Below, in pieces: positions 7,956 to 46,686 of a stretch of 47,243 bases of DNA. Source of the DNA: Candidatus Woesebacteria bacterium RIFCSPHIGHO2_01_FULL_39_32. GTDB taxonomy: Bacteria > Patescibacteriota > Microgenomatia > UBA8517. Location: NCBI GenBank assembly GCA_001792345.1, contig MGGJ01000002.1, forward strand, positions 1 to 47,243, given 5' to 3'. The notes beneath the pieces were generated by a model, which saw nothing but the letters and a program-made list of their open reading frames with translations, did no database searches and was not told the DNA's origin. How positions within the stretch are numbered: the first letter of the stretch is position 1; the number at the start of each line of letters is the position of its first letter. A program made the position numbers and the translations under genes.

Positions 7956-8034
7956 AATTTAATACACAATTAAAATTTATAGCCACATCCATTAAAAACG
8001 AATTACTTGAGTAAAGTCAATGTATAATTACCCT

Positions 8035-9105
8035 ATGAATATCTTGGGAATCGAAACTTCGTGTGATGAAACCGCGGCTAGTGTAGTTAAAAACGGAACG
8101 GAAATCTTATCAAATGTTGTGGCGACATCGGCCGAAATGCATGTAAAAACTGGGGGTATTATACCAGAACAAGCAGCAAGACAACAAGTTCGCAGCATCA
8201 TTCCCGTTATAGAGGAAGCACTAATAAAAGCTTTTGGTTCACCAATCACTAATTACCAATCACTAATCACCAAAATTGACGCAATAGCTGTAACTATTGG
8301 CCCCGGACTAATTGGCTCGCTTCTAGTCGGAGTGGAAACGGCAAAAACTCTTAGTTTCGTTTGGAAAAAACCTATCGTTCCAGTCAACCATTTAGTAGGA
8401 CATATTTACGCCAATTGGCTAGTAACAGACAAACGACAACCAACAACTAACTTACCTAAGTTTCCAGCTTTAGTTTTAGTCGTTTCCGGCGGGCATACGG
8501 ATCTAGTTCTAATGAAAAACCATGGAATATTTGAGTGGCTCGGAGGAACAAGAGACGATGCAGCGGGCGAATCATTTGATAAAACAGCAAGATTATTAGG
8601 GCTTCCCTATCCCGGTGGCCCTTCTATCTCTGCCGAATCCGAAAAGTATTTTAACCAACAATTAACTGTTGATAACTTACAGCTAAAACTTTTTCCGCGT
8701 CCTTTAATCCACGAGAAAAATTTCGATTGGAGTTTTTCCGGACTTAAAACTGCTGTTTTACGCGAATTAACAAATCAACCAATTAACAAAACTTCTATTC
8801 CCAAATTTGCGGCAGAAATCCAAGAAGCAATTATCGACTGTCTGGTTGAAAAAAGTATAAGAGCGATGAAAACATATAAACCGAAAAGTTTTCTGTTGGG
8901 TGGAGGCGTAGCTGCAAACAAAAGACTTAGGGAAAAATTTTTAAAACGAATAAAATCCGAAAAACTACAGGTCTTCCACGTGGCGGCGCCCGGAAACTTA
9001 TGCACAGACAATGCAGCATACATTGCATCTGCTGCTTTCTTTAACTTCAAACCAGTTAATTGGAAAAAGATTTTTGCAAATCCTCAGTTTACAATAATGG
9101 GTTAG
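8035..9105 (+). CDS. tsaD: tRNA threonylcarbamoyltransferase TsaD
   Basis: MNILGIETSCDETA, GPGLIGSL, VNHLVGH, VSGGHT, TRDDAAGESFDK, SFSGLKT, CTDNAA. Confidence 0.97.
   Translation: MNILGIETSCDETAASVVKNGTEILSNVVATSAEMHVKTGGIIPEQAARQQVRSIIPVIEEALIKAFGSPITNYQSLITKIDAIAVTIGPGLIGSLLVGVETAKTLSFVWKKPIVPVNHLVGHIYANWLVTDKRQPTTNLPKFPALVLVVSGGHTDLVLMKNHGIFEWLGGTRDDAAGESFDKTARLLGLPYPGGPSISAESEKYFNQQLTVDNLQLKLFPRPLIHEKNFDWSFSGLKTAVLRELTNQPINKTSIPKFAAEIQEAIIDCLVEKSIRAMKTYKPKSFLLGGGVAANKRLREKFLKRIKSEKLQVFHVAAPGNLCTDNAAYIASAAFFNFKPVNWKKIFANPQFTIMG
8241..8275 (+). repeat. In-frame heptamer tandem repeat in tsaD
   Basis: ACCAATC ACTAATT ACCAATC ACTAATC ACCAAAA, encoding SPITNYQSLITK. Confidence 0.85.
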
Positions 9106-9123: not shown

Positions 9124-9768
9124 ATGAAAATTTTAAAAGTAAACACTAATAATCCAGACCAAAAAATTATCGAGTTGACCGTTAGAATTCTAACAAACGG
9201 CGGCCTTATTGTTTATCCGACAGACACAGCCTATGGTTTAGGAGGTAACGCCCTTGACGAGAAAGTTATTAGAAAGGTCTACGAATTAAAAGATCGTGAT
9301 TTTAAAAAGCCAACACACGTAACTGTCCACAACTGGAAAATGATTAATAAATTAACTTTTACTAATGATTTTGCGAAAGAACTTTATGTGACCTTTACGC
9401 CAGGACCACTTACTATTATCTTAAATAAAAAATCAATAGTCCCAGACATGCTTACTGCAGGATTGCCCACGCTTGGGGTACGAATCCCAAAACTCGCGAT
9501 TATAAAAAGAGTTTCAAATTTTGTTGATTTTCCTTTTACAACACCTTCTGCAAATAGGTCCGGTGGAGTAGCTCCTTATTCAATCAGCGACGTCAAAAAA
9601 GAATTAGATATAGAAAAAGTTGATTTGATTCTTGACGCAGGAGAACTGCCGAAAGTTCTTCCATCTACAATAATCGATTTGACTTTGGATCCTCCCAAAA
9701 TTCTCCGCCAAGGACCGATTTCCAGAAATGAAATAGAAAAAGTACTGGGAATTGAAGTGCTGGTTTAA
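9124..9768 (+). CDS. tsaC: Threonylcarbamoyl-AMP synthase (TsaC/YrdC domain)
   Basis: YPTDTAYGLG, LKDR, PGPLTIIL, GVRIP, TPSANRSG, PSTIID. Confidence 0.95.
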   Translation: MKILKVNTNNPDQKIIELTVRILTNGGLIVYPTDTAYGLGGNALDEKVIRKVYELKDRDFKKPTHVTVHNWKMINKLTFTNDFAKELYVTFTPGPLTIILNKKSIVPDMLTAGLPTLGVRIPKLAIIKRVSNFVDFPFTTPSANRSGGVAPYSISDVKKELDIEKVDLILDAGELPKVLPSTIIDLTLDPPKILRQGPISRNEIEKVLGIEVLV

Positions 9769-9810
9769 CTTCTTTTTGAGCTTTGGCCTCGATTCAGATA
9801 TAATTTGCCA

Positions 9811-12057
9811 ATGAGCATGGACAAAACATATAACCACAAGGAATATGAGGAGAAAATATATAAGCTCTGGGAAAAGTCGGGCGCTTTTACTCCAAAGATA
9901 GATCCAAAGAAAAGGCCCTTTACTATTGTTCTTCCTCCTCCAAACGCCAGTGGCAAAATGCACACTGGAAATGTTTTGATGATTGCGACAGAGGACCTTT
10001 TAGTCCGATGGAAAAGAATGCAGGGATACTCGGCTTTATGGCTTCCGGGAACTGATCACGCCGGGTTTGAAACCCAGATTACTTTTGAGAGAAAACTAAA
10101 GGAGGAAGAAAAGTCTCGTTTTGATTTTGACAGACAAACTCTATACAAAAAAATTTGGGATTTTGTTCAAGAGAATAAACATTTAATCGAAGATCAAATT
10201 CGATCGATGGGTGCGAGTGTGGATTGGACCCGTAATAAATTTACTTTAGATCTTGATATTTTAGAGTCAGTAGTTAAAACTTTCAATAAAATGTACGAAG
10301 ACGGTTTAGTCTATAGAGCAGACTATATGGTTAACTACTGTCCAATTTGCGGAACTACCTTTGCGGACCTGGAAGTAAAACACAAAGAAAGAAAAGATCC
10401 GCTCTATTATATAAAGTACGGACCCTTCGTACTTGCTACTGTTAGGCCGGAAACAAAATTTGGCGACACTGCTGTCGCTGTCCACCCTAATGACAAAAGG
10501 TATAAAGGGTATATCGGTAAAGAGATTGAAGTTGATGGGCTTTTAGGAAAATTCAAATTAAAAGTCATCGCGGATAAGTTTGTAGATCCGAAATTTGGAA
10601 CCGGCGTTGTTAAAGTGACACCCGCTCATGATAAAAATGATTATGAGGCTGGCAAAAGACATACCCTCGAAGTAAAACCTGTAATTGGATTAGATGGAAG
10701 GTTAAATGAAAAGGCCGGTAAATATGTAGGCTTAACAATAAGTGAAGCAAGAGAAAAAGTAGTCGAGGATTTAAAAAAATATGGGTTACTTGAAAAAATC
10801 GATGAGAATTATACCCACACTGTTGCAGTCTGCTATAAGGGCGGACATGATATAGAACCAACAATTCTTCCAAACTGGTTCATTAAAGTTGAGTCCTTAA
10901 AAAAACCTGCGCATGATGTTGTTATAAAAGGAAAAGTTAAAATTTATCCAAAATGGCAAGAGGTTAAATATCACCGCTGGATGGAGTCTATGATGGACTG
11001 GCCGATTTCAAGACAAGTGGTATGGGGAATTCGAATTCCAGCATGGTATTCATTTAACGAAAATCCTAACTTACAAATAACATTTCTTAATAAAGACAAA
11101 GTTACTATTACGGGTAGATTGGCGGATTTACTTAAAAATTCTTCTTTAGATGATATTCGAGAAGGGTTACAAACACTTATCGCCCCCGGTGATGCAAAGG
11201 TCGTAATTAGTGATAAAAATCCAGGCAAAGATTACTTACAAGAAACTGACACTTTTGACACTTGGTTTTCTTCAGGACAATGGCCGTTGGTTACTTTAGG
11301 TTATCCCGAATCAAATGATTTCAAATATTTCTATCCTACAGATGTTTTGGAAACAGGTTGGGAAATTTTGAGGCTTTGGGTATCAAGAATGATCATGTTT
11401 GGAATTTATCTGACAGGCAAACCTCCATTTAAAGATGTTTATCTCCATGGAATCGTGAGAGCTCTTGATGGAAGAAAGATGAGCAAAAGCCTTGGTAATG
11501 TAATTAACCCCGAAGAATATCAGGCAGAGTTTGGGACCGACGCCCTACGAATGGGATTGATAAGTGGAACAGCCAACGGGAAAGACTTCAACTTTCCGGC
11601 AGATAAAGTAATCGCTTTTCGAAACTTTGCCAATAAAATCTGGAACATGGCTCGCTTTATGCTTATTATGTTTGATAAATATAAAGAGGATGTTCCGTTC
11701 TATTCTGCTGAACTTGAAAACAAACTAAAGAAAGAGGATAAGGACGTTCTAAAAGAGTTAGAAAATACAATAAAGAAGGTAAATACCTCATTGGAAAAAT
11801 ACCGATTCACAGATGCAGCTGAGTCAATTTATCACTTTATGTGGGATAAGCTGGCTTCAGAGTATTTAGAAGAAACAAAAGATCGTGAGGACAAAGAAGT
11901 TTCGCTTTCTGTATTAAGATATGTGTATTTTAATTCTTTGAAGCTTCTTCATCCATTTATGCCTTTTATTACTGAAGTAATTTGGCAGGAGTTAAAAGAT
12001 TTAAGAAAGTATCCCAATCAACTTTTAATAACTTCTTCCTGGCCAAAGATAAGTTAA
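9811..12057 (+). CDS. valS: Valyl-tRNA synthetase (shortened)
   Basis: PPPN...HTGN (HIGH variant), PGTDHAG, ATVRPET, GTGVVKVTPAHD, DWPISRQ, DTWFSS, KMSKSLGN, LLHPFMPFITE. Confidence 0.96.
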   Translation: MSMDKTYNHKEYEEKIYKLWEKSGAFTPKIDPKKRPFTIVLPPPNASGKMHTGNVLMIATEDLLVRWKRMQGYSALWLPGTDHAGFETQITFERKLKEEEKSRFDFDRQTLYKKIWDFVQENKHLIEDQIRSMGASVDWTRNKFTLDLDILESVVKTFNKMYEDGLVYRADYMVNYCPICGTTFADLEVKHKERKDPLYYIKYGPFVLATVRPETKFGDTAVAVHPNDKRYKGYIGKEIEVDGLLGKFKLKVIADKFVDPKFGTGVVKVTPAHDKNDYEAGKRHTLEVKPVIGLDGRLNEKAGKYVGLTISEAREKVVEDLKKYGLLEKIDENYTHTVAVCYKGGHDIEPTILPNWFIKVESLKKPAHDVVIKGKVKIYPKWQEVKYHRWMESMMDWPISRQVVWGIRIPAWYSFNENPNLQITFLNKDKVTITGRLADLLKNSSLDDIREGLQTLIAPGDAKVVISDKNPGKDYLQETDTFDTWFSSGQWPLVTLGYPESNDFKYFYPTDVLETGWEILRLWVSRMIMFGIYLTGKPPFKDVYLHGIVRALDGRKMSKSLGNVINPEEYQAEFGTDALRMGLISGTANGKDFNFPADKVIAFRNFANKIWNMARFMLIMFDKYKEDVPFYSAELENKLKKEDKDVLKELENTIKKVNTSLEKYRFTDAAESIYHFMWDKLASEYLEETKDREDKEVSLSVLRYVYFNSLKLLHPFMPFITEVIWQELKDLRKYPNQLLITSSWPKIS

Positions 12058-22428: not shown

Positions 22429-25302
22429 TTACTCTTGAAAAACTGTATTTTTTGCAAAATCGTAATGGATTGGATACAAGTCCTGGAAAGTAGTTCCGGG
22501 CCCGCAATATGTTGGACCCGACCAAAAAGTAGGCATTTGAGCATATAGTGCGTTTCCTTCTGCGAAACCTTCAGAAGGATCCGATGTGGACGAGTAGCTG
22601 CATAAAGGTAGTTCAGACGATGCTCCTGAACCTTCGTATGCTGATTGAAGTTCAGGCATTATTTCAGGTTTTTGTAAATGATGTGAGGACTCATGAGTTA
22701 AGATGTAGATCGAGTCCTGTAGATTATCTACGCCTCCAGCATCAAATTTAATATCGCAAGCCTTCGTGTGTGTGTGCCATCCCCATAGGCTTACTGCGGG
22801 CGGATCGTAGCATAGATTGACAGGTCCCCATGAAGTACTGCTGCAAACTTTAGCAACAAAAAGCGGGTGTTGGGAAACTAAATCAGATACGGCCGCTTCC
22901 ATATTAGCCTTGTAGTTTGCAGGCCAAGGATAAGCATTATCAACAACCGCGTAACATCCAGTCGGACATTCTCCAATACAAATACTAGCAAAACCAGATG
23001 CTTCTGAACGATTGGCACCTTCAGGGGTAGCCGCAACCGTAAATGTGTCAACTATTAAAGAATCGTTAAAATCTGTAGATCCGTTGCCATCAACATCTCC
23101 ATAGACAACGTCATACATTATTACGTACGACGTGCCAGCTGAGATACTTGGGGGAACAGCGTCTGTAAATGATGGAAATGTTTGTGGTCCAACCCGAATG
23201 TTTTTGGGGTCAGGACAGGTTTGACTATAATCCGCTTTGACTTCACATTTGTAAGTAAAAGTAATTGCTGTCAAAGTACCTTGTTTAGCTGTAATCGTAA
23301 TAGTATAAGTTGCATTAATTTCTGTATTATTTGGTCCTTCGGTGGGGGAAGCTACTTTTTTGACCTCAATATAAGGTGATTCAGGTACTCCGGGAGTAAA
23401 GTTATACCCTCCCCACGGAACTACGAAGGCGCTGTTGTTGATAATAAATACTATAAATATAAATAGTAATGGTACGGCAATTACCCCAATTAATATCGCA
23501 GGTGTAAATATTGGTGCAGCTACCGTGATTGCACCGAGCAAGAGTGTATTCACAAAGCCTGCTGCCTGTCCGCCTGCCGCCATTGCCCCAACCGAGCTTA
23601 AGTAAGAAGCCCCCATTGTTCCAGCTCCAGCTAGTGCGAGACCAGAACTTCCCGTGGCTAAACCTCCAACCAACATAAGCGCCCCTAAACCCATTATTGC
23701 TTTTCTGGTATCTTTTTCTCCGGTTAATAATCGGGGAATAAAAGAAAGAATATTTTTAGCGACATTTTTTAGAGTACCTAGAACCTGCAAAGCAATTGCT
23801 ACAGCTGTGCCGACTCCGGGTGCAACAGCGCTTGCTATAGCAGTGATACCTAATTTTGTAGCCAACCAAGTGGCACCCTTTTTAAGAATTCCCTTTGCTC
23901 CCGCCTTAACGCTACTTACAGCAAGTTGTTTAACTTCAGTTTTTGCAATCGTCTTCGTTGTGGTTTTTAGTGCTTTTCCTGCTAATTTCTGACTGGTTTC
24001 AATAAGTGACTTTGTTTGATTAAAAAATGAACCAATATCGGGAGAAAGATATCCGTTTTGTCTTTCTAGACGTAAGGTGGGTAATTCTGCGCTGGTCGGA
24101 ATGGTTGATTGTATAGATATTTCGGGATTTCTGTTGGCAATTTCTAATTGTTTACTAACGTCTTTATCAAATCCTTCTAGTGCAATTAAAGCCTTATTTA
24201 AGTCTTGTTCTTGTTGGAGTGTGATTATGTTATTATTGACTGCCTCAATTCCGGCCCCTTCTAGTTTTTCAGGTGTTCCTCCTCCAAGATGGAACGCAAG
24301 CGCGGTATTTATATGTCTATCGTCTAAACCGATCTCGTCAATTGCATCTTGACTAAAACCTGCATTTTTTAAAGCTTCATTTGTTTCAAACTTAGTGGTT
24401 ACATCTGAAGTAAAGGGACCTGCGGCTGATACGGTATTTGCATAATCCGCTGTATTTACTCTTGCTTCAGTAGTTTTTTTTGATTCAGCAGTCGTCGGAG
24501 TAAAGACTATGTAAACATCGCGTGACCCTGTTGGGGTTCCTGCCTCTGTTGGTTGTTCTTGTGCTGCGGCCTCCTTTGTTCTCCAGGGCTCCTTACCACT
24601 AACACGATCATAATTTTCTCGGTTTGTATCGTTTGATAAAACTGCGTATGCTTCGTTGATGTCTCTCGTTTTTTCTCCATACTCAATTTTTAGATTTTGC
24701 CATTCTGCTTCTGATATTTTTCCGCTTCGAAACATAGCCTCTGCTTTGTCGGGATGGTATTGTAAAAGCTGTTTTCTATATGCGCTTTTAATCTGATCTT
24801 GGGGTATATCAGGATCAACGCTAAGAATTTGATAGTAATCACGGACAGTAGTTTTGGGTGGGGCTTTAGGTCCAGCCTCATAAGTTTTTTCTCTTTGTCT
24901 TTCCTCATATCTAGCCTTTTCACCCGTTTTTTCCTTGTCAGTTTCTGGCTGTTCTTCTACAATTTGGAGTTCTTTTGTCTCGGGGATCATTTCCGCTTCT
25001 TCCCCCTCTATTGTTCCTAGCGCTTTTTCTTTTTCCGAGGTATCTTGAAGTGCTTTATATAATTCTTCGTAAGCAATAGGCTCTATTTTTAAAAGTTCTT
25101 TTTCAAGGTTTTTAGCTTCGCCTGGAGGAAGTAGCTCAATTTCTTTTTGGGAAAGCGGTTTTATCTTTAATCTCGAGTCTGGGATGAAGCGAGATATTGA
25201 AAGTATAAACTGAGTAAGTCCCCAAAGACCTTTAAATTTATACCTATTTTCTAATAATCCTACTACCTCCGAATGTTGAGAACTTGCTAAGATATTTGCC
25301 AT
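22429..25302 (-). CDS. Large membrane protein with J-domain, Gly/Ala-rich TM region and C-terminal HExxH metallopeptidase-like domain
   Basis: RDYYQILSV...IKSAYRK...YHPDK...INEAYAVLS...RENYD; ILTHESSH...EGFAE; GDVDGNGSTDFND. Confidence 0.75.
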   Translation of the reverse strand: MANILASSQHSEVVGLLENRYKFKGLWGLTQFILSISRFIPDSRLKIKPLSQKEIELLPPGEAKNLEKELLKIEPIAYEELYKALQDTSEKEKALGTIEGEEAEMIPETKELQIVEEQPETDKEKTGEKARYEERQREKTYEAGPKAPPKTTVRDYYQILSVDPDIPQDQIKSAYRKQLLQYHPDKAEAMFRSGKISEAEWQNLKIEYGEKTRDINEAYAVLSNDTNRENYDRVSGKEPWRTKEAAAQEQPTEAGTPTGSRDVYIVFTPTTAESKKTTEARVNTADYANTVSAAGPFTSDVTTKFETNEALKNAGFSQDAIDEIGLDDRHINTALAFHLGGGTPEKLEGAGIEAVNNNIITLQQEQDLNKALIALEGFDKDVSKQLEIANRNPEISIQSTIPTSAELPTLRLERQNGYLSPDIGSFFNQTKSLIETSQKLAGKALKTTTKTIAKTEVKQLAVSSVKAGAKGILKKGATWLATKLGITAIASAVAPGVGTAVAIALQVLGTLKNVAKNILSFIPRLLTGEKDTRKAIMGLGALMLVGGLATGSSGLALAGAGTMGASYLSSVGAMAAGGQAAGFVNTLLLGAITVAAPIFTPAILIGVIAVPLLFIFIVFIINNSAFVVPWGGYNFTPGVPESPYIEVKKVASPTEGPNNTEINATYTITITAKQGTLTAITFTYKCEVKADYSQTCPDPKNIRVGPQTFPSFTDAVPPSISAGTSYVIMYDVVYGDVDGNGSTDFNDSLIVDTFTVAATPEGANRSEASGFASICIGECPTGCYAVVDNAYPWPANYKANMEAAVSDLVSQHPLFVAKVCSSTSWGPVNLCYDPPAVSLWGWHTHTKACDIKFDAGGVDNLQDSIYILTHESSHHLQKPEIMPELQSAYEGSGASSELPLCSYSSTSDPSEGFAEGNALYAQMPTFWSGPTYCGPGTTFQDLYPIHYDFAKNTVFQE

Positions 25303-25321
25303 ACCAAGATTTTACACTAAT

Positions 25322-27256
25322 TTATTGTGTTTCTTTAGTTATTACTCGCGCGGTCTCACCCGGAGAAACTGCGTTTGTAAAGCTTGTCAGTTGTTGTGCT
25401 TGCTGTAATAATTCTGAAGGTTTTGTAGTAATTAATTTATGTTCTTCAGCCGAAGCTACAACGCTAATTGGAGCATGGTTTGTTCCGGCAAAAAAGATAC
25501 CTTCCCCGATATTTGCACCCAGCAAAAGATTCCGTTCTCCTTGAGATAAATAAAAAACTTCTCCTACCCTGTCTATCGCTGCAGGAGACTGCTTGAAAAG
25601 AACTCTAAGGGCGCTGTTGGTCACAATTGCTTTACCTATATCTTGTGCAAGGAAATCTTCCACATCCTGAGTGATTGTAGTTAAACCAAGATAGTATTTT
25701 CTGGCACGTTTTACAATAGACCAAAGAAACTGTGCCGAATCTTCATACCTCATCATATGCCAGGCCTCATCGACTACCATAAGTCGAGGTTTTAAATCTT
25801 TTCTAATTCGAGTCCATATAAAGTCCAGAATTACAAACATTGCGATTGGTCTTAACGCATCTTGAAGTTCACGAATTGAAAAAACGGTGAATGGGTTTTC
25901 AATTTCTATATTTGTTTGTTTGTCAAAAATTCCAACAAAAGATCCTCTTACAAATTTTTCAATTCTAGCTGCCAGGTCAAGTGCTTCTGGAGTTTCCATT
26001 CCGATCAGGATTTTATAAAGATCCTCCATTAAAGGAGCTTCTTTAGTTTGCGTAATAGGATCTTGTGTTATGCCCTTGCTTCTATATGTGGCAACAATCG
26101 CTCTATCCAAAAGGGCATCTTGTAAAGGAGTGATAGCACCCATTATTACTTTAAAAAGTGAATGTAGGGATAGAATTTTTAAGCCTAAATTATTTTCTCC
26201 CGGTTCATATACCTGAGCAAGATCAAAGGGATTAATTTTCGACGGTGAAGAAAAAGAAAAGGATATATGCTGCCCTCCTACGGCCTCCGCTAGGGCTTTA
26301 TATTCGCCTTCGGGGTCTATTACTATTACTTCTGTTCCCAACATTAATGAACGTACGGACTCCAGTTTTACAAAATAGCTTTTTCCGGCGCCGCTAGTCG
26401 CGAATATGGTCATATTGCTGTTCTCTAGAGAAAACCTATCGAAGATGATAAACGAGCCGTTTTGCGTGTTAATTCCATAAAGAACACCTTTGTCGCCGGA
26501 TAGTTCTGCAGAGGTAAGGGGAAAAGTTGTTGCTAGGGAAGTTGTATCCATATTTCTTGTAATAGAGAGCCTGTCGAGGCCAAAAGGAGCAGTTGATAAA
26601 AATCCGTTTTCCATATCAAGAGTTGTGTGCTGTGCTTTAATTAAAGTTGATCCTAGAGTGGATTCGACCTGCTTTGATATGTGATTGAGTTGTTCCAAGT
26701 CAGCAGCACGAACAGTTATATAGAATCCGAATTCATAAAAATGCTCAGCACCTTTAACCAATTCTTCTTGAAGTAGCCTAGCGTCTTCAAGTTTTGCTGT
26801 TGTGGCGGGATCGACTATTTTTCCTCTTTCCAAATCGGTTGATATTTCTGCCTCCATCTCTGCAACTTTTCTCATAAGGTCATCCAATACGCTTTTCCCC
26901 TCGATTGGGTAGATGAAAAAGGAAACATCTAATGAACTGTTAAAATTTATTATTTGTTCGAGCCAGCCTGGAGAAACAAATCGAGGGTAACCCGAAATAA
27001 AAAGTGTTCGTAGATAGACGCCGTCTATTTGTAAGTAATCAAAGTCAATTTCCACTTTTCTAGGTGCGATGACGTCCAGTAAATCCATATTTTGAGTTGC
27101 TATTGCTGCTACAGGATCGACAATTTCGGGCTTGTTTGTAGAATCTTGCAGTGCTTCTTGGGGTTGGGTCGAGAGATTTTGGACGATGGCAGAAGCACCC
27201 TTCGGATTTTCAGGAGGACTGGATTTTTTGATGCGTTTTAAAAAATTAAAGGCCAT
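25322..27256 (-). CDS. virB4: VirB4/TraC-like type IV secretion ATPase
   Basis: Walker A ATSGAGKS, VIDPEGEY, INPFD, Walker B MVVDEAW, RARKY, TQDVEDF. Confidence 0.9.
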   Translation of the reverse strand: MAFNFLKRIKKSSPPENPKGASAIVQNLSTQPQEALQDSTNKPEIVDPVAAIATQNMDLLDVIAPRKVEIDFDYLQIDGVYLRTLFISGYPRFVSPGWLEQIINFNSSLDVSFFIYPIEGKSVLDDLMRKVAEMEAEISTDLERGKIVDPATTAKLEDARLLQEELVKGAEHFYEFGFYITVRAADLEQLNHISKQVESTLGSTLIKAQHTTLDMENGFLSTAPFGLDRLSITRNMDTTSLATTFPLTSAELSGDKGVLYGINTQNGSFIIFDRFSLENSNMTIFATSGAGKSYFVKLESVRSLMLGTEVIVIDPEGEYKALAEAVGGQHISFSFSSPSKINPFDLAQVYEPGENNLGLKILSLHSLFKVIMGAITPLQDALLDRAIVATYRSKGITQDPITQTKEAPLMEDLYKILIGMETPEALDLAARIEKFVRGSFVGIFDKQTNIEIENPFTVFSIRELQDALRPIAMFVILDFIWTRIRKDLKPRLMVVDEAWHMMRYEDSAQFLWSIVKRARKYYLGLTTITQDVEDFLAQDIGKAIVTNSALRVLFKQSPAAIDRVGEVFYLSQGERNLLLGANIGEGIFFAGTNHAPISVVASAEEHKLITTKPSELLQQAQQLTSFTNAVSPGETARVITKETQ

Positions 27257-27261
27257 ATAAT

Positions 27262-27930
27262 TTAAGCAAAAATGTCCTTCTCTTTTACGGGTGTTTCAGG
27301 ATTATAGACATTATAGAAAAGTTCAATTAGCTCCTCTGTTGTTAATTGTTTCAGTTTAATGGTTAGTCGACCCGCCTGTCTAATTAAGTGGTCTCGTTTG
27401 GGGAAAAGAGAAATTTTTGCTTTACGGATTACATATGATTTTGGATAAGGCAAGGGAGCTATCTTTTTTGAGGTTCTAAAAGTTGAAGCAATTGACTTTG
27501 CAACACCAAGTTCATAGGGAGTGAAAAGAATGACGATATAAAATCGTTTACTTAATACATTCTTCTTTTTAATAGCATCTTGGATAAACTTTTTGTAGTC
27601 TTCCATCAACCCAAGTAATTTTTGATTCTTGATTCTCTTTCCGGCTTCTACTAGAAAATCCATATAGCTACTTATATCTTTCTTTTGGCTTCGTACTACA
27701 ATTTGAACAGCAAAGTTAAAAGAATTAAGTAGTCCTGCGTAACTTGCAATTACAGCTCGCTGTTCCGTTTCGGATAACAGCCCGAAATTTAGAGACGTTG
27801 ATTCCATGACAAGTGCTGCACCACCGTTTTCGTAAATTACAACCCCATCGACAATGTCGGCAATAGGTAGTAGGTCCTGAGTGGACGAGCTTAATGCTTT
27901 ATCCGGCGTACTTAGTAAAGGTATTCTCAT
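27262..27930 (-). CDS. Conserved T4SS-associated protein (TraC/VirB4 N-terminal-like)
   Basis: STQDLLPIADIVDGVV, NFGLLSETEQ, LNSFNFAVQIVVRS, ELFYNVYNP; between PrgI-like gene and virB4. Confidence 0.65.
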   Translation of the reverse strand: MRIPLLSTPDKALSSSTQDLLPIADIVDGVVIYENGGAALVMESTSLNFGLLSETEQRAVIASYAGLLNSFNFAVQIVVRSQKKDISSYMDFLVEAGKRIKNQKLLGLMEDYKKFIQDAIKKKNVLSKRFYIVILFTPYELGVAKSIASTFRTSKKIAPLPYPKSYVIRKAKISLFPKRDHLIRQAGRLTIKLKQLTTEELIELFYNVYNPETPVKEKDIFA

Positions 27931-27934
27931 TTTA

Positions 27935-28912
27935 TTAAGATATTAAGTTTTCAGATTGTTTTTTCGACCATATTGCGATTGGCGGAATAATTTCACCTTT
28001 TGCTTCAAGAGTGATGGGTTCAAAAGTGTAGCCTTCTTTTTCTGTGATTATTTCATACATTCCGTTAAGTAGCGGTGTAACAATCATAAAGTGTCCCAGT
28101 TTATTGCTCTTCAACGCCCTAACCGGCCTACCTTCCGAATCTCTTATTTCCAAAATTGCTGCTTCGATTATTCCGCCACTTGGGTCCACAACCTGACCTA
28201 CTATTACGTTCGGTTTTGTAGGAGGACTGGGGGGAGCAGCTTCCTGAGAAAATTGAGCAACCTGTACTCCTTCAATTTTTTTACCCACAGAAGGAGTTAG
28301 CGTAGATATATTTGTCGGCTGAGGTGTTGCCTCAGGCGTTTCATTTATTCTAGCTTTTTCCTCTTGTGATACGGTAATTATTGGAGACGCAGGGACTTTC
28401 TCTTCCTGTGAAGGAGGTTCTGGGAGGGTTACTGATTGGGGAGAAATCCCTTGGACGCTTGCTAACTGTTGAGTAACGCTTGAGAGAAATGCACTTTCCT
28501 TTTCCTCGAGGTTTTTCAGCTCAGGTGCAGGAGTCATAACAGGAGTGCTTTCGCGCGGAATAGATATTTGAGTTTCAGTAGTGCCGGGTTCAGGCGAAAA
28601 AAAATTTTGTTTCTTTTGGCCCTTTCGCCACACATAAAGGGTTGGGGAATATATCGATTTAATGAATAGAAAGATCCACGTTGAGAGCGGACGATCTTGA
28701 AGTGGGAAAAAAGCAAAGGCGATCCCTGTTAGAAAAGAAAGTATGATAAGTGGCCACTTTACATAACTTGCTGCATTACTGGTGTAAACCAAAAGTGCCA
28801 CAAGTGCTCCACCCGCCACTTGGAAAAACTGCTTGATCGTCATGTCTCCCACAAGCCTGAATTGGTAGGCAGAGATCTGTTGTGGTATCGGATGCTGTTC
28901 TTCGAGTTCCAT
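27935..28912 (-). CDS. PrgI-family membrane protein with C-terminal beta-sandwich domain
   Basis: QHPIPQQISAYQFRLVGDMTIKQF, two TM, DRPLSTW; Pro-rich linker; VGQVVDPSG...GMYEIITEKEGYTF. Confidence 0.75.
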   Translation of the reverse strand: MELEEQHPIPQQISAYQFRLVGDMTIKQFFQVAGGALVALLVYTSNAASYVKWPLIILSFLTGIAFAFFPLQDRPLSTWIFLFIKSIYSPTLYVWRKGQKKQNFFSPEPGTTETQISIPRESTPVMTPAPELKNLEEKESAFLSSVTQQLASVQGISPQSVTLPEPPSQEEKVPASPIITVSQEEKARINETPEATPQPTNISTLTPSVGKKIEGVQVAQFSQEAAPPSPPTKPNVIVGQVVDPSGGIIEAAILEIRDSEGRPVRALKSNKLGHFMIVTPLLNGMYEIITEKEGYTFEPITLEAKGEIIPPIAIWSKKQSENLIS

Positions 28913-28917
28913 AATTA

Positions 28918-28942
28918 GAGTAAATGAGCGTGAGAGTATAAG
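28918..28942 (+). repeat. Octamer array, left flank of four-helix-bundle pseudogene
   Basis: GAGTAAAT GAGCGTGA GAGTATAA G. Confidence 0.75.
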
Positions 28943-28950
28943 TTAACTTT

Positions 28951-29327
28951 TTAACTTCTCAAGCTCTTCTGATAACTGTACAAAAGCTTTTTAGCTTCTA
29001 AAACAAGCGAACTTATTTCTTCGAATTTCATTTTATCAAAATATCCTAGTTCATATGAAACCTTAAAATATATTCTAGTTCATTAATTGATCCCTTACTG
29101 ATATCTAAGAAACGTATTAACTCTTTTCTTGAGGTCTTTGAGTATCCTTTAACTATATTAGCAGTTATAGAAATTGCAGCACGTCGCATTTGTGGTGCTA
29201 AAACAAACAGCTCTTCTTTAGGATACCCTTTTGTTAACTTGTATGTGGCTAATACCAATCCAAAAGACTTTTGATATACAATTAATTTTTCGTAACCTTG
29301 TTTCTGGTAGGCAGTTTTAATACTCAC
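28951..29327 (-). pseudogene. Frameshifted four-helix-bundle protein (23S rRNA-IVP/Avd-like)
   Basis: YEKLIVYQKS, YPKEELFVLAPQMRRAAISITANIVKG, RFLDISKGSINELE; 1-bp loss near 29070, other frame continues YFKVSYELGYFD...KKLLYSYQKSLRS* to 28951. Confidence 0.85.
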
Positions 29328-29355
29328 GCACTTATACCCTTCTACTCTTATACTC
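29324..29355 (-). repeat. Octamer array, right flank, inverted relative to the left
   Basis: Minus strand GAGTATAA GAGTAGAA GGGTATAA GTGCGTGA. Confidence 0.75.
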
Positions 29356-29444
29356 TATATCGTGAACCCTTTTTTTCAAGACTATAGCTTTTTCACAGGG
29401 AGAGTTGTGTTAAAAGGTGCGTTGGGGTGGTAAAATATGGGTAT

Positions 29445-31706
29445 ATGGTAGAACAAGGATCAACGGAAAAGGCCGACAAAGAAGAAAGAGCTCCATTGCA
29501 GCCGGATGTAAAATCCGATAAGGGTGCTACTGAATCTGATGAAACCCAAAATTCTTCTAAAAAAAGTAAAGAGGACGAACTGGTTGAAGCAGTAAGAGAG
29601 ATTACTTCTGCAGTAAATCAGGCAAATAAGGACATTGTGGCGTCCGTTAATAATCTAGCAGGCCAACTTGAAGCTTACGCTAAAGCAATAGGCCAGCAAA
29701 TAGCCCTACTCGAGAAAAGAAAAGATACGGCATTGGTTGACGCAACGATTGATGCAATGGTCAAAAAATTAGAGCCGGTTATTAGAGAATTTACTGAGGC
29801 ACTAGATGGTGTAAAAGACGCTTCAGATCGGGAATTTAGACAACTTAAATATAACGAAGATTTGATGAAGGCTTATTTAGAACAAATCGAGCAGGCACAA
29901 AATATTCCAGACGAACTTAAAAACCCCACCCTTGACAGGATGATCGGACGTTTATCCGATGAGGATAAAGCGGAGTATGAAGCTACTGTAAGAGAAGAAG
30001 TAAGAAATGGTAGAACAGTGGAAATCCATCAGGTACGCGGTAAGGAATGGAATGAGACAAATGAAGTTTACCAAAACATGGTTGAGGATTGGTTTGAAGA
30101 AAGAATTAGGGAAATGGAATCAGTCGAGCAATCATTCGAAGAACAACCCGATGTTTATCGATATTTATCTCTTTATGCAAACAACTATGTTCTTAGGAAA
30201 GATACGAAACCGTTTGGGGAAAGAATTAGAGACAACCTTGAGACAAGAAGAATTAGACATAGAGTCGTTAGAGTTTGGAATATGGCGGGACCTGAAGGAA
30301 TTTTAAGTGAAGCTTCAAGAATTACCTTCACTACTTGGAGAAAGTTATTTAAGACCGAAAATATTGGAACTTATGTGTTAGATAGACGTGGTAATAGAGT
30401 AAAAGATCCGAAAACGGGTGAAGATAGAAAAGAAAACCACATTGAAAACGAACTTCAAAATTACGAGAGAATGGGAAGAATTTTGAGGGGGAAAAGAGAT
30501 AGGTTAAGACAAATTCAAAGGTCGCCTGGGGGTGGAGATAAGACAGAAATTAAGGCCTTGGAAAAAGAGATAAAGATTAAAGAGCAGTATATTTTTGACT
30601 ATTACAGTCTGGGGGGTTCGATAGAGGATACAAATCCAGACTTTTTTGTAAAGCTGGGTGGTGAGATCGAAAAACCCAAAGACGAAGATTTCAGAAAATA
30701 TCAGATAGAGCACCCAAATCCTGATTTAAGTAGCAAAAAAGCCAGAGAGCATAGAGATGCAATTTGGGCCAAGAGATATGCCGGAGGACTTTGGAGTATG
30801 ACTTTGAGAGCCGCCACCCACGACATTCAACTAAATGGTAGTGGTGATTTTTTTGCAGCAAGAATAATGAATTTCAGCGACCGTCTGACTAGAAATAACC
30901 TAATGAGAGATTCAAGCGAAATATGGGATCCGACTAGGGTGGATGACCCCTTTGATTTGGGGTATATGGATGTAATGACTTCGCTCTTGGGGAATGTTGA
31001 GAACCTAGATAGTTTGGGAGTTTCAGGGAATCAGAAAGTGGTGTCTGGAGAAAAAGTTGTCGGCATAAAAAGCTTAGAAAATTTTAAGTGGGGCAGTAGC
31101 GAGGTTTGGGATAAAGCGTTAATGAAAGAGGATATTAGACCACCAGAGGGGATGTATGTTATTAGGATGACGTATTTTAACGATGCCGACAATACTCGAA
31201 AGAGAATGTGGGCTGCAGATAGCTATTTCCATAAACCAACGCTTGAAAATTTAATCAATATGGAAGGTGTATTTGCACATTCAGGAACTGGAAAAAGAGA
31301 CGCGATAATAAAAGATAGTTCCGGCGAAAGGGTAATTGGAACCGTAAAAGATATTACTCCTATCGAAGTAAAGTGGATGGAGCTTCTTGATAGGTCGTTA
31401 GAATACTTAAAAACCAAACAAGGTGCGGAATGGATGAGCGATCCTACAACTGGTTATCCTCGTCTTGCTATGACTCGTGAGTGGATCAATACTGCACGTA
31501 GAAATGGAATGATTGGTGAAGAGACAAAAAATATTTTATTAAGAAAATATTTTGGAACAAGGAATACCTTTCTGCTTAATAGGATATCGGAAATTAACGT
31601 GTGGGGGGCTGATTTAATACATAATGCAGGAGGTATGACTTGGAGCGCCTTCATGGAATATATTAAAAGAATGTTTAAATATATGTTTTCAGATGAAGTT
31701 AGATAG
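29445..31706 (+). CDS. Large charged, probably helical hypothetical protein
   Basis: 759-aa ORF; likely ATG at 29445, 8 nt after TAAAAT; no family recognised. Confidence 0.75.
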   Translation: MVEQGSTEKADKEERAPLQPDVKSDKGATESDETQNSSKKSKEDELVEAVREITSAVNQANKDIVASVNNLAGQLEAYAKAIGQQIALLEKRKDTALVDATIDAMVKKLEPVIREFTEALDGVKDASDREFRQLKYNEDLMKAYLEQIEQAQNIPDELKNPTLDRMIGRLSDEDKAEYEATVREEVRNGRTVEIHQVRGKEWNETNEVYQNMVEDWFEERIREMESVEQSFEEQPDVYRYLSLYANNYVLRKDTKPFGERIRDNLETRRIRHRVVRVWNMAGPEGILSEASRITFTTWRKLFKTENIGTYVLDRRGNRVKDPKTGEDRKENHIENELQNYERMGRILRGKRDRLRQIQRSPGGGDKTEIKALEKEIKIKEQYIFDYYSLGGSIEDTNPDFFVKLGGEIEKPKDEDFRKYQIEHPNPDLSSKKAREHRDAIWAKRYAGGLWSMTLRAATHDIQLNGSGDFFAARIMNFSDRLTRNNLMRDSSEIWDPTRVDDPFDLGYMDVMTSLLGNVENLDSLGVSGNQKVVSGEKVVGIKSLENFKWGSSEVWDKALMKEDIRPPEGMYVIRMTYFNDADNTRKRMWAADSYFHKPTLENLINMEGVFAHSGTGKRDAIIKDSSGERVIGTVKDITPIEVKWMELLDRSLEYLKTKQGAEWMSDPTTGYPRLAMTREWINTARRNGMIGEETKNILLRKYFGTRNTFLLNRISEINVWGADLIHNAGGMTWSAFMEYIKRMFKYMFSDEVR

Positions 31707-31736
31707 AATAGAAATTAAAAAGAAGTAAAATATATT

Positions 31737-33305: not shown

Positions 33306-33365
33306 GGACTTAATAAGTTAATAATAGCATACCACTTATACTTAAATGCAAGTGTATTTATTTCG

Positions 33366-38474: not shown

Positions 38475-38508
38475 TCAAATTTTAAATCTCAAAACAATAT
38501 CTTAAAAC
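38475..38508 (+). repeat. Heptamer array, left flank of the intact four-helix-bundle gene
   Basis: TCAAATT TTAAATC TCAAAAC AATATC TTAAAAC. Confidence 0.65.
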
Positions 38509-38511
38509 TTT

Positions 38512-38916
38512 TTAACTTCTTTTACCTTTCAAAGTTAGAAGGCTTGCAGCAATCATCTTTCCGATTTCTTTTACCTCTGTGATGAGAGGTTCTGATTTTC
38601 CCGCTTCCACTAATTTGGAATCTTTAAGAAGCATCAACCAATAAATGGTTTCGTTGGCGCTTTTGAGAGCAATCTCATAAAATTTTATGAAATCTCTCCT
38701 CGAGCTAGAGGATTTGGCTTCGACCAAATTTGCTCCGATAGAAGTTGAACTACGTAACAGTTGATCTCCTATTATCCAGTAGGCTCTTTTTTGAGGAAAA
38801 TCTTTAACTAGATCAATTATAGTAAGCGAAAACTTATAAGCTCGGTATTTTACGTTAGATTTAAGATTTGCGTTGTGGTTTTGAGTTTTGACATATGACA
38901 TTTGAGTTTGATTCAC
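38512..38916 (-). CDS. Four-helix-bundle protein (23S rRNA-IVP/Avd-like)
   Basis: RAYKFSL, DQLLRSSTSIGANLVEA, SRRDFIKFYEIALKSANETIYWL, EVKEIGKMI. Confidence 0.9.
   Translation of the reverse strand: MNQTQMSYVKTQNHNANLKSNVKYRAYKFSLTIIDLVKDFPQKRAYWIIGDQLLRSSTSIGANLVEAKSSSSRRDFIKFYEIALKSANETIYWLMLLKDSKLVEAGKSEPLITEVKEIGKMIAASLLTLKGKRS
38857..38912 (-). repeat. Heptamer array at the gene's 5' end, inverted relative to the left flank
   Basis: Minus strand TCAAAC TCAAATG TCATATG TCAAAAC TCAAAAC CACAACG CAAATC TTAAATC. Confidence 0.75.
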
Positions 38917-40463: not shown

Positions 40464-42224
40464 ATGAAAAGCGCAATGAATAGCGAAAAGCAGCGAGAAA
40501 CAAGTAAGGGGTTATTTTTAAAAGGAAAAATATTTATTTCTTTGTTTGTTTCCCTTTTCTTACTTCTTACTTCTTACTTCTTACTTCTTAAATCTATTTC
40601 CGCTGAGCCTGACTGCGACAACCCTAATCCGGGTGACATAGACTTTTGTTTACAAAGAATTGAAGCTGAATTAAGCGCCCTAAAACCGGCCCAAGAATAT
40701 AACAAAAAAGAACTTGCTGATTTACGAACACAGATTTCCAGCTTGGAAAAAAGGATTTCCGGGATTTCAAACCAATTGGGAGTACTTGAAGGGGACATTG
40801 GAAAAAGAGAAGAGGATCTTGCCTACGCCCAGGAAATTTTTGTTGAGAAAACCAAAAACCACTACAGATTCTTGCGCTTTTATGATCCGCTTTTACCCTT
40901 TTTATCTACAGAGAACGCATCAAGTGCATTTAGAGAAATAATATTTAGACAAAAAGCCGCAAACGAAGACATTAAAACGATGGAGGGGTATGGAGCTGAT
41001 TTACTTGCCCTTAAAACCGACAAAGAAAATCTCGAAAAAAGTAAGACCAGCCTTTCCTCTATAAAGAGTCAGGTTGGTCAAAGAGCGCAATTTTTAGCCG
41101 GTGAGGTTGAGAAAACCGAGAAGTATCTTTCCGCCCTTTCTTCAAAACAAGAAGAACTTATTGCTCTAAAAGCCGGAGGATTTCAAACTTCAGTTGGAGA
41201 TACTCCCGCAACAGCAGAACCATGCTCCGGTCCTCCCGGATCTTCGAATTATTGCGATCCCGGTTTTAGACCTGCCTTTGCTGGGTTTTCCTTTGGTGCT
41301 CCTCATAGAACAGGCTTAAGTCAATACGGTGCATATGGAAGAAGTAAACAGGGACAGTCTGCTGAAGCTATTTTAGGAGCATATTATCAGGGAGCTGAAC
41401 TCAATAAATCCTTTCCCATTCCTGATACGATTGGAGTATCAGGCTACGGGAGAATTCCTTTTGAGGATAATTACTTACTGGGAATTTATGAGGTTCCTGA
41501 GTCCTGGGGTAATAATGGTGGTTTTGAGGCTTTGAAAGCGCAGGCTGTTGCGGCCCGCTCGTATGCCTTAGCAGTTACCGGCAACGGCGCCGGAACTATT
41601 TGTCCTACGGAATCCTGCCAGGTTTATAAACCCCAACTAAAAAGCGGTAAATGGGCAGAGGCGGTGCGTGCAACACGTGGTTGGGTAATGGTAAAGGGAG
41701 GAACGGCTGCAACAACTTATTATGCCTCAACCTCCGGTGGATATACGATTTCTCAGTGGGGTTGGTCAGGTATAAAAGACACTAACGGTGATTGGCCAAG
41801 TGGCGCCTATGAGAAATTATCTGGATCTCCTTGGTTTTATAAAGCATGGTTTAGAACTAGAGGGGGGGCGACCTGTGGCAAGGCGAACCCCTGGTTAAAT
41901 AATCAGGAAATGGCAGATATATTAAATGCTTGGCATGTTTTATATAAAGGTGGAGGAGATTCGGGAAGAGTCTCACCTATCGACACGAATTGTTGGGGAG
42001 GAAATCCGTATTCGATTAGTGAACTCGCAGGAATGGGAGGATATACCAGCGTTTCAAGTGTAGCCGTTACTTATTCTAACGCGGGGAATACGCAAACTGT
42101 TACATTTGGTACAAATAAAGGTAGTGTTAATCTGTCCGGCGAGGAATTTAAAAAAGCATTTAACCTGCGTGCGCCTGGATACATCGGGTTAAAAAGTAGT
42201 TTATTCAACATCGAGAAGCTGTAA
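40464..42224 (+). CDS. SpoIID/LytB-family protein with N-terminal coiled coil
   Basis: HRTGLSQYGA, YLLGIYEVPESW, EALKAQAVAARSYA, ESCQVY, YYASTSGG. Confidence 0.85.
   Translation: MKSAMNSEKQRETSKGLFLKGKIFISLFVSLFLLLTSYFLLLKSISAEPDCDNPNPGDIDFCLQRIEAELSALKPAQEYNKKELADLRTQISSLEKRISGISNQLGVLEGDIGKREEDLAYAQEIFVEKTKNHYRFLRFYDPLLPFLSTENASSAFREIIFRQKAANEDIKTMEGYGADLLALKTDKENLEKSKTSLSSIKSQVGQRAQFLAGEVEKTEKYLSALSSKQEELIALKAGGFQTSVGDTPATAEPCSGPPGSSNYCDPGFRPAFAGFSFGAPHRTGLSQYGAYGRSKQGQSAEAILGAYYQGAELNKSFPIPDTIGVSGYGRIPFEDNYLLGIYEVPESWGNNGGFEALKAQAVAARSYALAVTGNGAGTICPTESCQVYKPQLKSGKWAEAVRATRGWVMVKGGTAATTYYASTSGGYTISQWGWSGIKDTNGDWPSGAYEKLSGSPWFYKAWFRTRGGATCGKANPWLNNQEMADILNAWHVLYKGGGDSGRVSPIDTNCWGGNPYSISELAGMGGYTSVSSVAVTYSNAGNTQTVTFGTNKGSVNLSGEEFKKAFNLRAPGYIGLKSSLFNIEKL
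40557..40591 (+). repeat. Heptamer tandem repeat in the signal/TM segment
   Basis: (TTCTTAC)x4 + TTCTTAA, encoding LLLTSYFLLL. Confidence 0.9.
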
Positions 42225-46005: not shown

Positions 46006-46686
46006 ATGGGTTTAGTCGATCTAATTTTTCCTAGAAGTTGCCTTTCGTGTGGAAATCAAGGGAGGTACGTTTGTGATTCATGCATAAAAAAAGTACCGAG
46101 TCCAAAGTTGGTTTGTCCTGAGTGTCAACGACCCTCAATTGACGGATTTACTCACATTAAGTGTAAAAGAACCTTAAGTCTGGATGGAATTATTTCCATA
46201 TGGTGCTACCAAGGTGTGGTTAGGACCGCTCTTCTTAAATTGAAATATGCGTATGCGAGGGAAATTGCGACCGAAATTTCGGTATATACCAATTCTCAGC
46301 TTGATAAATTCCTTATTGCTTTACCCAAAAACCCTACTCTTGTGCCTATTCCACTTTATTTTTTGAAAGAAAATTTAAGGGGTTTTAATCAAACAGAAAT
46401 TTTAGGGAAAGCGATGGCAATGCGGCAGACTTGGAAATTTGTTCCCGACCTTCTCCTTAGAAAGATGCTAAAAAAACCTCAAGCTGAATTAAAGGGGGAT
46501 GAAAGAAAGGAAAATATCAAAGGAGTTTTTGCACTTAACAGTTTTTACCAACCACTAATCACTAATCACCAATCACTAATTTTATTCGATGATATCTATA
46601 CAACAGGTTCAACATTGAAAGAAGCTTGTAAGGTTTTAAAAAGAAATGGAGCAAATGTGGTTTGGGGACTAACTATTGCAAGATAA
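46006..46686 (+). CDS. comF: ComF family protein (zinc ribbon + PRTase)
   Basis: LIFPRSCLSC...CDSC...CPEC, VPIPL, RGFNQ, LFDDIYTTGSTL. Confidence 0.93.
   Translation: MGLVDLIFPRSCLSCGNQGRYVCDSCIKKVPSPKLVCPECQRPSIDGFTHIKCKRTLSLDGIISIWCYQGVVRTALLKLKYAYAREIATEISVYTNSQLDKFLIALPKNPTLVPIPLYFLKENLRGFNQTEILGKAMAMRQTWKFVPDLLLRKMLKKPQAELKGDERKENIKGVFALNSFYQPLITNHQSLILFDDIYTTGSTLKEACKVLKRNGANVVWGLTIAR
46547..46581 (+). repeat. In-frame heptamer tandem repeat in comF
   Basis: ACCAACC ACTAATC ACTAATC ACCAATC ACTAATT, encoding YQPLITNHQSLI. Confidence 0.85.

Follow-up and report, generated by a model that had tools for sequence, protein, structure and literature searches.

The window, i.e. the whole stretch of 47,243 nucleotides of DNA that was analysed, contains an intact tsaD gene (8020..9105, forward strand), which codes for a t6A tRNA threonylcarbamoyltransferase of 361 residues. 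The assignment is based on a TIGR03723 score of 354.9 bits (curated cut-off 296.1), on matches to TsaD entries of the PDB (best E-value 2.5e-69) and on a predicted model with the TsaD fold (pLDDT 94.9; TM 0.86 to 3zet_B). H124, H128 and D330, which represent the metal-binding HxxxH motif and the C-terminal Asp, are invariant across 64 aligned sequences. The ORF is the single TsaD match in its own 1.17-Mb genome, which is 95% complete, and its closest orthologue is 72% identical. About half of the genomes of the same family possess a TsaD that is only about 40% identical to that of the window, whereas identities of 55-70% were found for the remainder, and the family thus seems to contain two types of TsaD. 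The gene adjoins valS and a gene of the TsaC/Sua5 family (9124..9768, forward strand), a threonylcarbamoyl-AMP synthase (TIGR00057, 184.4 bits, over the cut-off) that serves as pathway context only. ValRS (9805-12057) has 750 residues and appears to lack the C-terminal part, because its match to the family model, which has 863 positions, covers only 1-714.

Profile matches revealed four-helix-bundle genes in the window as well. A cassette at 28918..29356 (reverse strand) has 8-mer arms on both sides of its gene, which is interrupted by stops; 3 of them lie inside the family match (29046-29327), and both arms are kept. In the gene at 38480..38916 (reverse strand), a 7-mer array covers the 5' end and a complementary T-rich stretch follows behind the stop; the encoded protein matches 2rld, an entry with 5 chains, with an E-value of 1.9e-18. 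A secretion- or conjugation-like cluster at 22429-36188, which comprises a VirB4-like ATPase (25322-27256), a DnaJ-domain-containing ORF of 957 residues and several long unannotated ORFs, is bracketed by two four-helix-bundle genes. The repeat scan further identified a perfect 7-mer (4.9 units) in frame near the N-terminus of an ORF with a SpoIID/LytB domain (40557..40590, forward strand; domain by profile match), a further instance of what is seen in tsaD, and a 7-mer tract in comF (46547..46580, forward strand), which was compared with two other genomes.

The original prediction had located four strings of 7- or 8-mer repeats in tsaD, and all four are present and in frame in the ORF. Tract 1 (8239..8275, forward strand) consists of five degenerate 7-mers at residues 74-85. 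Its description as ACYAATC x5 holds exactly for three units, one of the others having 1 mismatch and one having 2. Tract 2 (8424..8451, forward strand) comprises four degenerate 7-mers at about residues 135-144, tract 3 (8653..8687, forward strand) lies in the segment of residues 205-226, and tract 4 (8765..8790, forward strand) comprises three 8-mers at residues 249-257, where a helix end, a loop and the start of the next helix are encoded. The tracts are degenerate and not perfect arrays, have lengths of 24-37 nt and fold weakly (-2 to -5 kcal/mol). In order to assess them, lag-match scores were ranked and compared with those of 3000 codon permutations and 3000 synonymous shuffles of tsaD. 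Tracts 1 and 2 scored 16 (over 8239-8273) and 11 (over 8428-8451) at period 7, and tract 4 scored 10 (over 8765-8790) at period 8. The best, second-best and third-best tsaD scores were reached by 0, 1 and 0 of the 3000 permutations, and the synonymous shuffles gave P=0.005, 0.004 and 0.0013, so that P<=0.005 holds for tracts 1, 2 and 4 under both regimes. The score of fourth rank does not stand out (P=0.48 and 0.85, respectively), and tract 3 is therefore at chance level and was rejected as a significant repeat. It could represent an array that has decayed, since a significant tract is present at that segment in 12 of 63 orthologues; clear tracts or palindromic inserts occur there in relatives.

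All tracts lie between conserved TsaD blocks, as had been proposed. They are not restricted to free loops, because in the predicted model tract 1 includes helix 79-83 and tract 4 the last turn of helix 240-252. The segment containing tract 1 has 29 residues compared to 30 in the repeat-free sister orthologue L026, and tract 1 therefore represents a replacement. The tract 4 segment is length-neutral, with 26 residues in both proteins. Only the tract 2 segment, with 19 residues compared to 16 in L026 and a mode of 11-13, is a net insertion. The proposal that the tracts had been inserted into loops thus fails for tracts 1 and 4, which lie within one residue of the length of the sister. Contigs of two public DNA runs that are not flagged as possible sources (X7, records 25 and 30; X10, records 2 and 3) contain all four tracts with 0 differences, and among the variants listed for the contigs of four runs, from which rare variants are dropped, no length variant or indel was found at the tracts. 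In X10, a soil run, the summed contig depth rises abruptly to 400-700 over tract 1 (8208-8295), which suggests that its unit family is common in other organisms of this sample.

For a comparison between lineages, 63 of 69 TsaD loci were kept; five partial sequences and one divergent sequence were dropped. The distant TsaD type, which many genomes of the order possess, was excluded by the E-value cut, which 59 of 134 genomes passed. Among the 63 orthologues, 26 contain a total of 63 tracts, a few low-scoring ones being A-rich runs, and 37 contain none. The units differ between lineages at shared sites, and neither units nor peptides are conserved at any of them. With one exception, all 63 tracts are found within five surface segments, which in the predicted model are helix ends, linkers and one strand start. 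This agrees with the expectation that repeats survive only in permissive places.

The segments differ in how length is treated. At residues 300-330, a helix-to-strand segment, the modal length of 31 residues is found in 14 of 15 carriers and in 30 of 48 non-carriers. The 14 equal-length carriers that were compared contain 12 different units; identity is 0.76 within a tract and 0.55 between genomes, and the hydrophobic columns are kept. At residues 201-228, 12 of 12 carriers have 23-25 residues (mode 25), and at residues 62-90 the modal 21 residues are found in 7 of 16 carriers. Residues 132-150, which are longer in 7 of 7 carriers, form the only segment that is always lengthened. In a quick tree calculated without the tract segments, the carriers at residues 300-330 are clustered (7 changes compared to 13.5 after shuffling of the labels), and sister pairs bear different units. 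Because of these two observations, a few seedings followed by fast local turnover would also fit the tracts at this site. Units at one site are often single-change neighbours in one register, and the array period changes between 7 and 8 at one site in both TsaD and ComF.

Other proteins were compared as well. Of 31 tracts in 29 TopA sequences, 9 change the length by no more than one residue, 18 gain less than half of their own length, and 3 look like pure insertions. In contrast, all 6 tracts in 29 uL3 sequences add 4-6 residues, at a tract length of 10-12. One ComF site contains a 7-mer, an 8-mer or a mixed array in three genomes, with lengths that agree within one residue. Insertion is therefore not the rule in TsaD, TopA and ComF, where the tracts are usually longer than the net gain in length. 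For the most part, the tracts thus replace variable surface segments and do not lengthen them. A 7-nt unit that is read through three frames yields a period of seven residues and could supply the hydrophobic pattern.

Six TsaD sequences (L010, L012, L017, L019, L026, L027) contain GC-rich palindromic mini-elements of 20-80 nt in frame. These share segments with the tracts (about residues 132-150, 205-226 and 247-266), are sometimes nested inside a heptamer array and add length, up to about 27 residues in L026. At about residues 65-87 of L005, L010, L017, L027 and L069, two complementary arrays follow each other in frame, which corresponds to a whole gene-less hairpin inside a protein.

The pattern is not specific to tsaD, as the emphasis on this gene had implied. 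A simple ORF caller yielded 1103 ORFs in the genome, in which 69 period-7 segments with a score of 13 or more were found, compared to 2 in one permuted copy and 5 in one synonymous-shuffled copy, i.e. an enrichment of about 14- to 35-fold. In intergenic DNA, there are 28 such segments and 0 in the control. Period 14 shows the next largest excess after 7, period 8 a weaker one (10 compared to 6 and 2), and periods 4, 5, 10, 11 and 13 show little. This short-array excess at period 7 is the defining property of prokaryotic heptamer SSRs. The density is higher between genes (28 in 124 kb compared to 69 in 1.05 Mb of ORFs); by number, most arrays are found in ORFs (85 of 132 period-7 arrays within ORFs of the simple caller). 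Altogether, 99 tracts are spread over 74 ORFs, of which 68 were searched against Pfam together and five more separately. TrmD, class I and class II tRNA synthetases, GatB, uL3, topoisomerase I, peptidyl-tRNA hydrolase, formyltransferase, RecJ, UvrA, UvrD and DNA ligase are among them, and tsaD is thus only one of many genes in which this pattern is seen. The unit family of tract 1 is also present in other ORFs of the genome, and the comF tract belongs to it.

A run of ORFs of about 570-600 residues at G000:C1:135569-148746 (L072, L073), which have no Pfam match at an E-value of 1e-12, contains 2-4 tracts per ORF, and T-rich tracts therein encode hydrophobic stretches that resemble membrane helices. 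A general match of T-rich tracts to a hydrophobic context was rejected as not significant (rho 0.20, P=0.06, n=88). The heptamer load is extreme in the complete 0.8-Mb genome G065, where the pattern of five units is matched 391 times, 40 kb contain 33 tracts and the arrays are longer; this genome is a good model for the repeat process.

The arrays draw on a limited set of units. The 132 period-7 arrays fall into 75 unit classes, compared to 113-120 expected, and 37 of 85 coding units are common to non-coding arrays, compared to 14 expected. When the coding units of orthologues were compared solely with the sampled cassette flanks, 10 of 71 were shared (7.2 expected; P=0.18), which is not significant. 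At the level of blocks, the cassette at G000:C6:33874 has both of its arms repeated, in the form of hairpins without a gene, at the intergenic loci C13:67584, C13:121977 and C11:12122, with exact matches of 31 nt at two of the three, and 23 nt of one arm recur inside an ORF at C6:43126. Tract 4 is itself a dispersed 23-nt block with an exact intergenic copy at G000:C4:103238-103260. With two mismatches or fewer, it was found at 27 places (two of them overlapping) in 14 of 134 genomes, and its reversed control at 0. Twelve of the 27 places are in long ORFs, and one is located 10 nt from a four-helix-bundle ORF (L264), i.e. as a cassette arm; it was for the tract 4 family, at this one place, that an array was seen beside a TIGR02436 gene. 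All 14 genomes with the block have TIGR02436 matches (P about 0.001). Tracts 1, 2 and 3 have no close copy elsewhere in the genome, and none was found for tract 2 at 5 mismatches or fewer; a 30-nt piece of tract 1 has one copy with 2 mismatches in 1 other genome of the 134. A genome-wide, order-specific test for block copying gave a weak signal (mean longest match 15.8 compared to 14.8 nt, n=116, P=0.016).

The original prediction had linked the tracts to the arrays beside four-helix-bundle genes, and this link passed several tests. Of 46 TIGR02436 genes, 35 are flanked by arrays on both sides (periods 6-9; a count without shuffle control), and at about 36 of 45 genes the two flanks can pair with each other (duplex z about -2 or lower). 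In contrast to most TIGR02436 genes, a gene of the GxxExxY family (TIGR04256; G000:C13:168046-168363) showed no array in its flanks. In twenty hand-chosen 20-kb regions per side, taken from 10 genomes each, 98 period-7 tracts were counted in 400 kb of genomes with many TIGR02436 matches and 6 in 400 kb of genomes with zero matches, whereas periods 6 and 9 did not differ. The genome-wide scan that had been suggested as a check yielded, over 134 genomes, a rho of 0.70 between the period-7 pattern count per Mb and the number of TIGR02436 matches; within one family, rho is 0.69. The median load is 14 for genomes with 0 matches, 38 for 1-2, 108 for 3-5 and 104 for at least 6. The association is also seen when genomes of one genus are compared, namely in 11 of 12 contrasts of presence and in 18 of 20 contrasts between high and low. 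Note that these values refer to matches and not to copy numbers, that the genomes are incomplete and that the cassette arms are counted in the load. Thirteen of the 134 genomes are clear exceptions, ten with zero matches and a high load and three with 3 or more matches and a low load, and tsaD tracts are present even in 5 of 24 zero-match genomes. No direction can be read from the correlation.

The arrays are confined to a narrow range of sizes. All 41 near-perfect arrays of the genome have 21-35 nt and 94 of 103 at other loci have 19-34 nt, the short side of the range being biased by the score threshold. Counts per 5-nt bin are 47, 36 and then 4, where 27.6 are expected from a geometric tail, i.e. 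there is a steep drop beyond 35 nt. A hard ceiling at 35 nt holds for the near-perfect arrays of this genome; the limit is softer outside ORFs, where 10 of 46 arrays exceed it compared to 2 of 65 in ORFs, and it is therefore due in part to coding constraint. The number of 7-nt units in 35 nt, five, equals that of the subunits in the ring cited for Xcc0516 and that of the chains in 2rld; for now, this agreement is regarded as a coincidence of numbers. A unique YAR core per unit, an idea that arose post hoc after looking at the data, was found in 51 of 59 cassette arms (39 expected), but was rejected: genome-wide, its reversed control RAY is at least equally frequent (4316 compared to 3654 matches over 134 genomes), and no binding code is therefore claimed.

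We consider it probable, at roughly 0.55, that the tsaD tracts, which are read in frame, belong to a family of 7/8-mer arrays of about 30 nt that is spread over the whole genome and also forms the inverted arms of TIGR02436/IVS-type cassettes, and that they were copied onto existing sequence through short-patch recombination guided by microhomology, after which selection acted on them. Coding and intergenic sites have arrays in common with gene-less hairpins and with cassette arms. Different units occupy the same five TsaD segments time and again, often with length and hydrophobic pattern kept, multi-unit blocks recur at unrelated loci, and the load scales with the number of cassette genes. 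As to the form of the donor, the enzymatic step and the role of the four-helix-bundle protein, we infer the following. Donors would be cassette arms or gene-less hairpins in the form of single-stranded DNA, which would pair with the target through a few matching bases, or with an array already present there, and replace a similar length. The apparent absence of MutS, which was not found in the 95%-complete genome, may help this replacement. Only stop-free, frame-keeping events whose 7-residue-periodic peptide fits the local structure would survive, and the four-helix-bundle protein might bind or spread the arms. SPDIR (10.1101/2023.11.22.568220), in which ectopic single strands replace 3-100 bp, is a precedent; it is described as very rare in wild-type Acinetobacter. 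Neither a donor-recipient event nor an empty pre-site was caught in a close strain pair. The tracts would then be tolerated parasitic footprints and not a regulatory device. It is also conceivable, albeit speculative and rather unlikely, that a pentameric IVS/Avd-like protein is the engine of the prokaryotic heptamer excess: its ring would bind about five 7-nt units (35 nt) of a cassette arm and promote their pasting elsewhere. In this way, a selfish element would keep replacing helices and loops on the surface of essential enzymes by peptides with a period of seven residues, often at unchanged length.

Chance or codon bias in A-rich variable loops has a negligible probability. It describes tract 3 taken alone and the few low-scoring orthologue tracts that are A-rich runs, but for tracts 1, 2 and 4 it is refuted by both shuffles, in which such periodicity is not common, and the excess in the genome is period-specific; the claim that codon bias does not account for them was correct. 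Local polymerase slippage with a 7-nt preference, which would build and homogenise arrays in place while selection fixes length and frame and cassette genes merely pick up arrays in repeat-prone genomes, is possible but doubtful. Summaries in PMC4692102 and PMC4679880 give slippage as the explanation that has been published for the excess of heptamers in prokaryotes, and it is consistent with the missing MutS, the single-change neighbours in one register, the minority of long arrays and the variation in unit number between strains that is reported for an IVS (PMC4990558). It does not predict, however, a unit repertoire that is limited relative to random local 7-mers, exact mixed-unit blocks of 23-31 nt at unrelated loci and in unrelated genes, the near absence of period-7 tracts in zero-match genomes of the same family, or the steep drop beyond 35 nt. 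Slippage alone explains the homogeneity of units, but not the shared blocks and the cassette association.

Copying of the arms via RNA, in which the four-helix-bundle protein would present a hairpin RNA to a reverse transcriptase, whose cDNA product would then replace a target of the same length, appears improbable: PF05635 is described as homologous to Avd (PMC10053308), the arms base-pair at most of the genes and same-length replacement resembles retrohoming, yet a search of this one 95%-complete genome gave 0 matches to PF00078 (RVT_1). A function of the tracts in tsaD, as phase-variation switches or as selected regulatory or structural elements, is more remote still. Upstream heptamers have been proposed as translational control sites in Beggiatoaceae (PMC4679880), and the tracts do recur at the same sites. 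Such a function is nevertheless unlikely because 37 of 63 orthologues lack tracts; furthermore, no site has a conserved unit or peptide, a slip by one unit in these degenerate tracts would frameshift the only tsaD copy, and the variants listed for the contigs of the four runs include no length variant there.

The proposed pasting of cassette-type arrays can be compared with several known systems. Prokaryotic heptamer SSRs (cyanobacterial STRR; Xanthomonas and Nostoc, PMC4692102; Beggiatoaceae, PMC4679880) share the 7-nt unit, the number of about four units and the dispersal. As described there, they are mostly intergenic, under-represented in ORFs and dominated by one unit, whereas here 85 of 132 arrays are in ORFs, many unit families exist and the load tracks TIGR02436 genes. 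The available part of PMC4679880 does not mention four-helix, pentamer or S23, and makes no connection between heptamers and TIGR02436. Rickettsia palindromic elements (RPEs; PMC10969869) are likewise selfish repeat DNA in frame within housekeeping proteins. They are described as palindromes of about 150 bp with a conserved peptide that add sequence; the arrays analysed here share the location in housekeeping ORFs, but are tandem arrays of 25-35 nt without such a palindrome, encode many peptides and often replace sequence.

The ORF-bearing 23S rRNA IVS (S23p/PF05635/TIGR02436; PMC4990558) also consists of a four-helix-bundle gene in an inverted-repeat stem loop, and the same source reports tandem heptamers upstream of the IVS ORF and cites a homopentameric ring for Xcc0516. 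A 23S rRNA intervening sequence is located in an rRNA gene and is cut out by RNase III. Here, the cassettes of the window lie between protein ORFs and not in rRNA genes, several copies, gene-less versions and single arms in ORFs exist, and the tsaD tracts have neither a gene nor a full stem. SPDIR resembles the proposed step in that ectopic single strands pair with their target at microhomologies, whereby 3 to about 100 bp are replaced; its donors are reported to be arbitrary, whereas here they would all belong to a single repeat class that is narrow in size and used repeatedly. DGR retrohoming with Avd (PMC10053308) combines same-length coding replacement with a homologous four-helix-bundle accessory protein. 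In contrast to a DGR, many targets are affected here, no template/variable repeat pair or adenine-specific change was seen and no reverse transcriptase was found in the genome.

Earlier papers have described, one by one, the heptamer excess, selfish repeats that are read in frame, and heptamers next to an IVS ORF. Within the literature searched, outside of which most subscription papers lie, no work joins these three observations, and none describes in-frame heptamers in CPR genes. Added here are the quantified replacement, the association over 134 genomes with within-genus contrasts, and the size limit. Two old puzzles, the prokaryotic period-7 excess and the role of the widespread IVS/S23 four-helix-bundle protein, thereby become one testable question. 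In essential enzymes, repeat DNA provides functional sequence at helix ends and strand starts while the length stays the same, and this constant-length replacement is a route of protein change that is unlike both point mutation and RPE-style loop insertion. Because the segments are repeat-derived and converge between lineages, they should be masked in marker-gene trees and selection scans of Patescibacteria.
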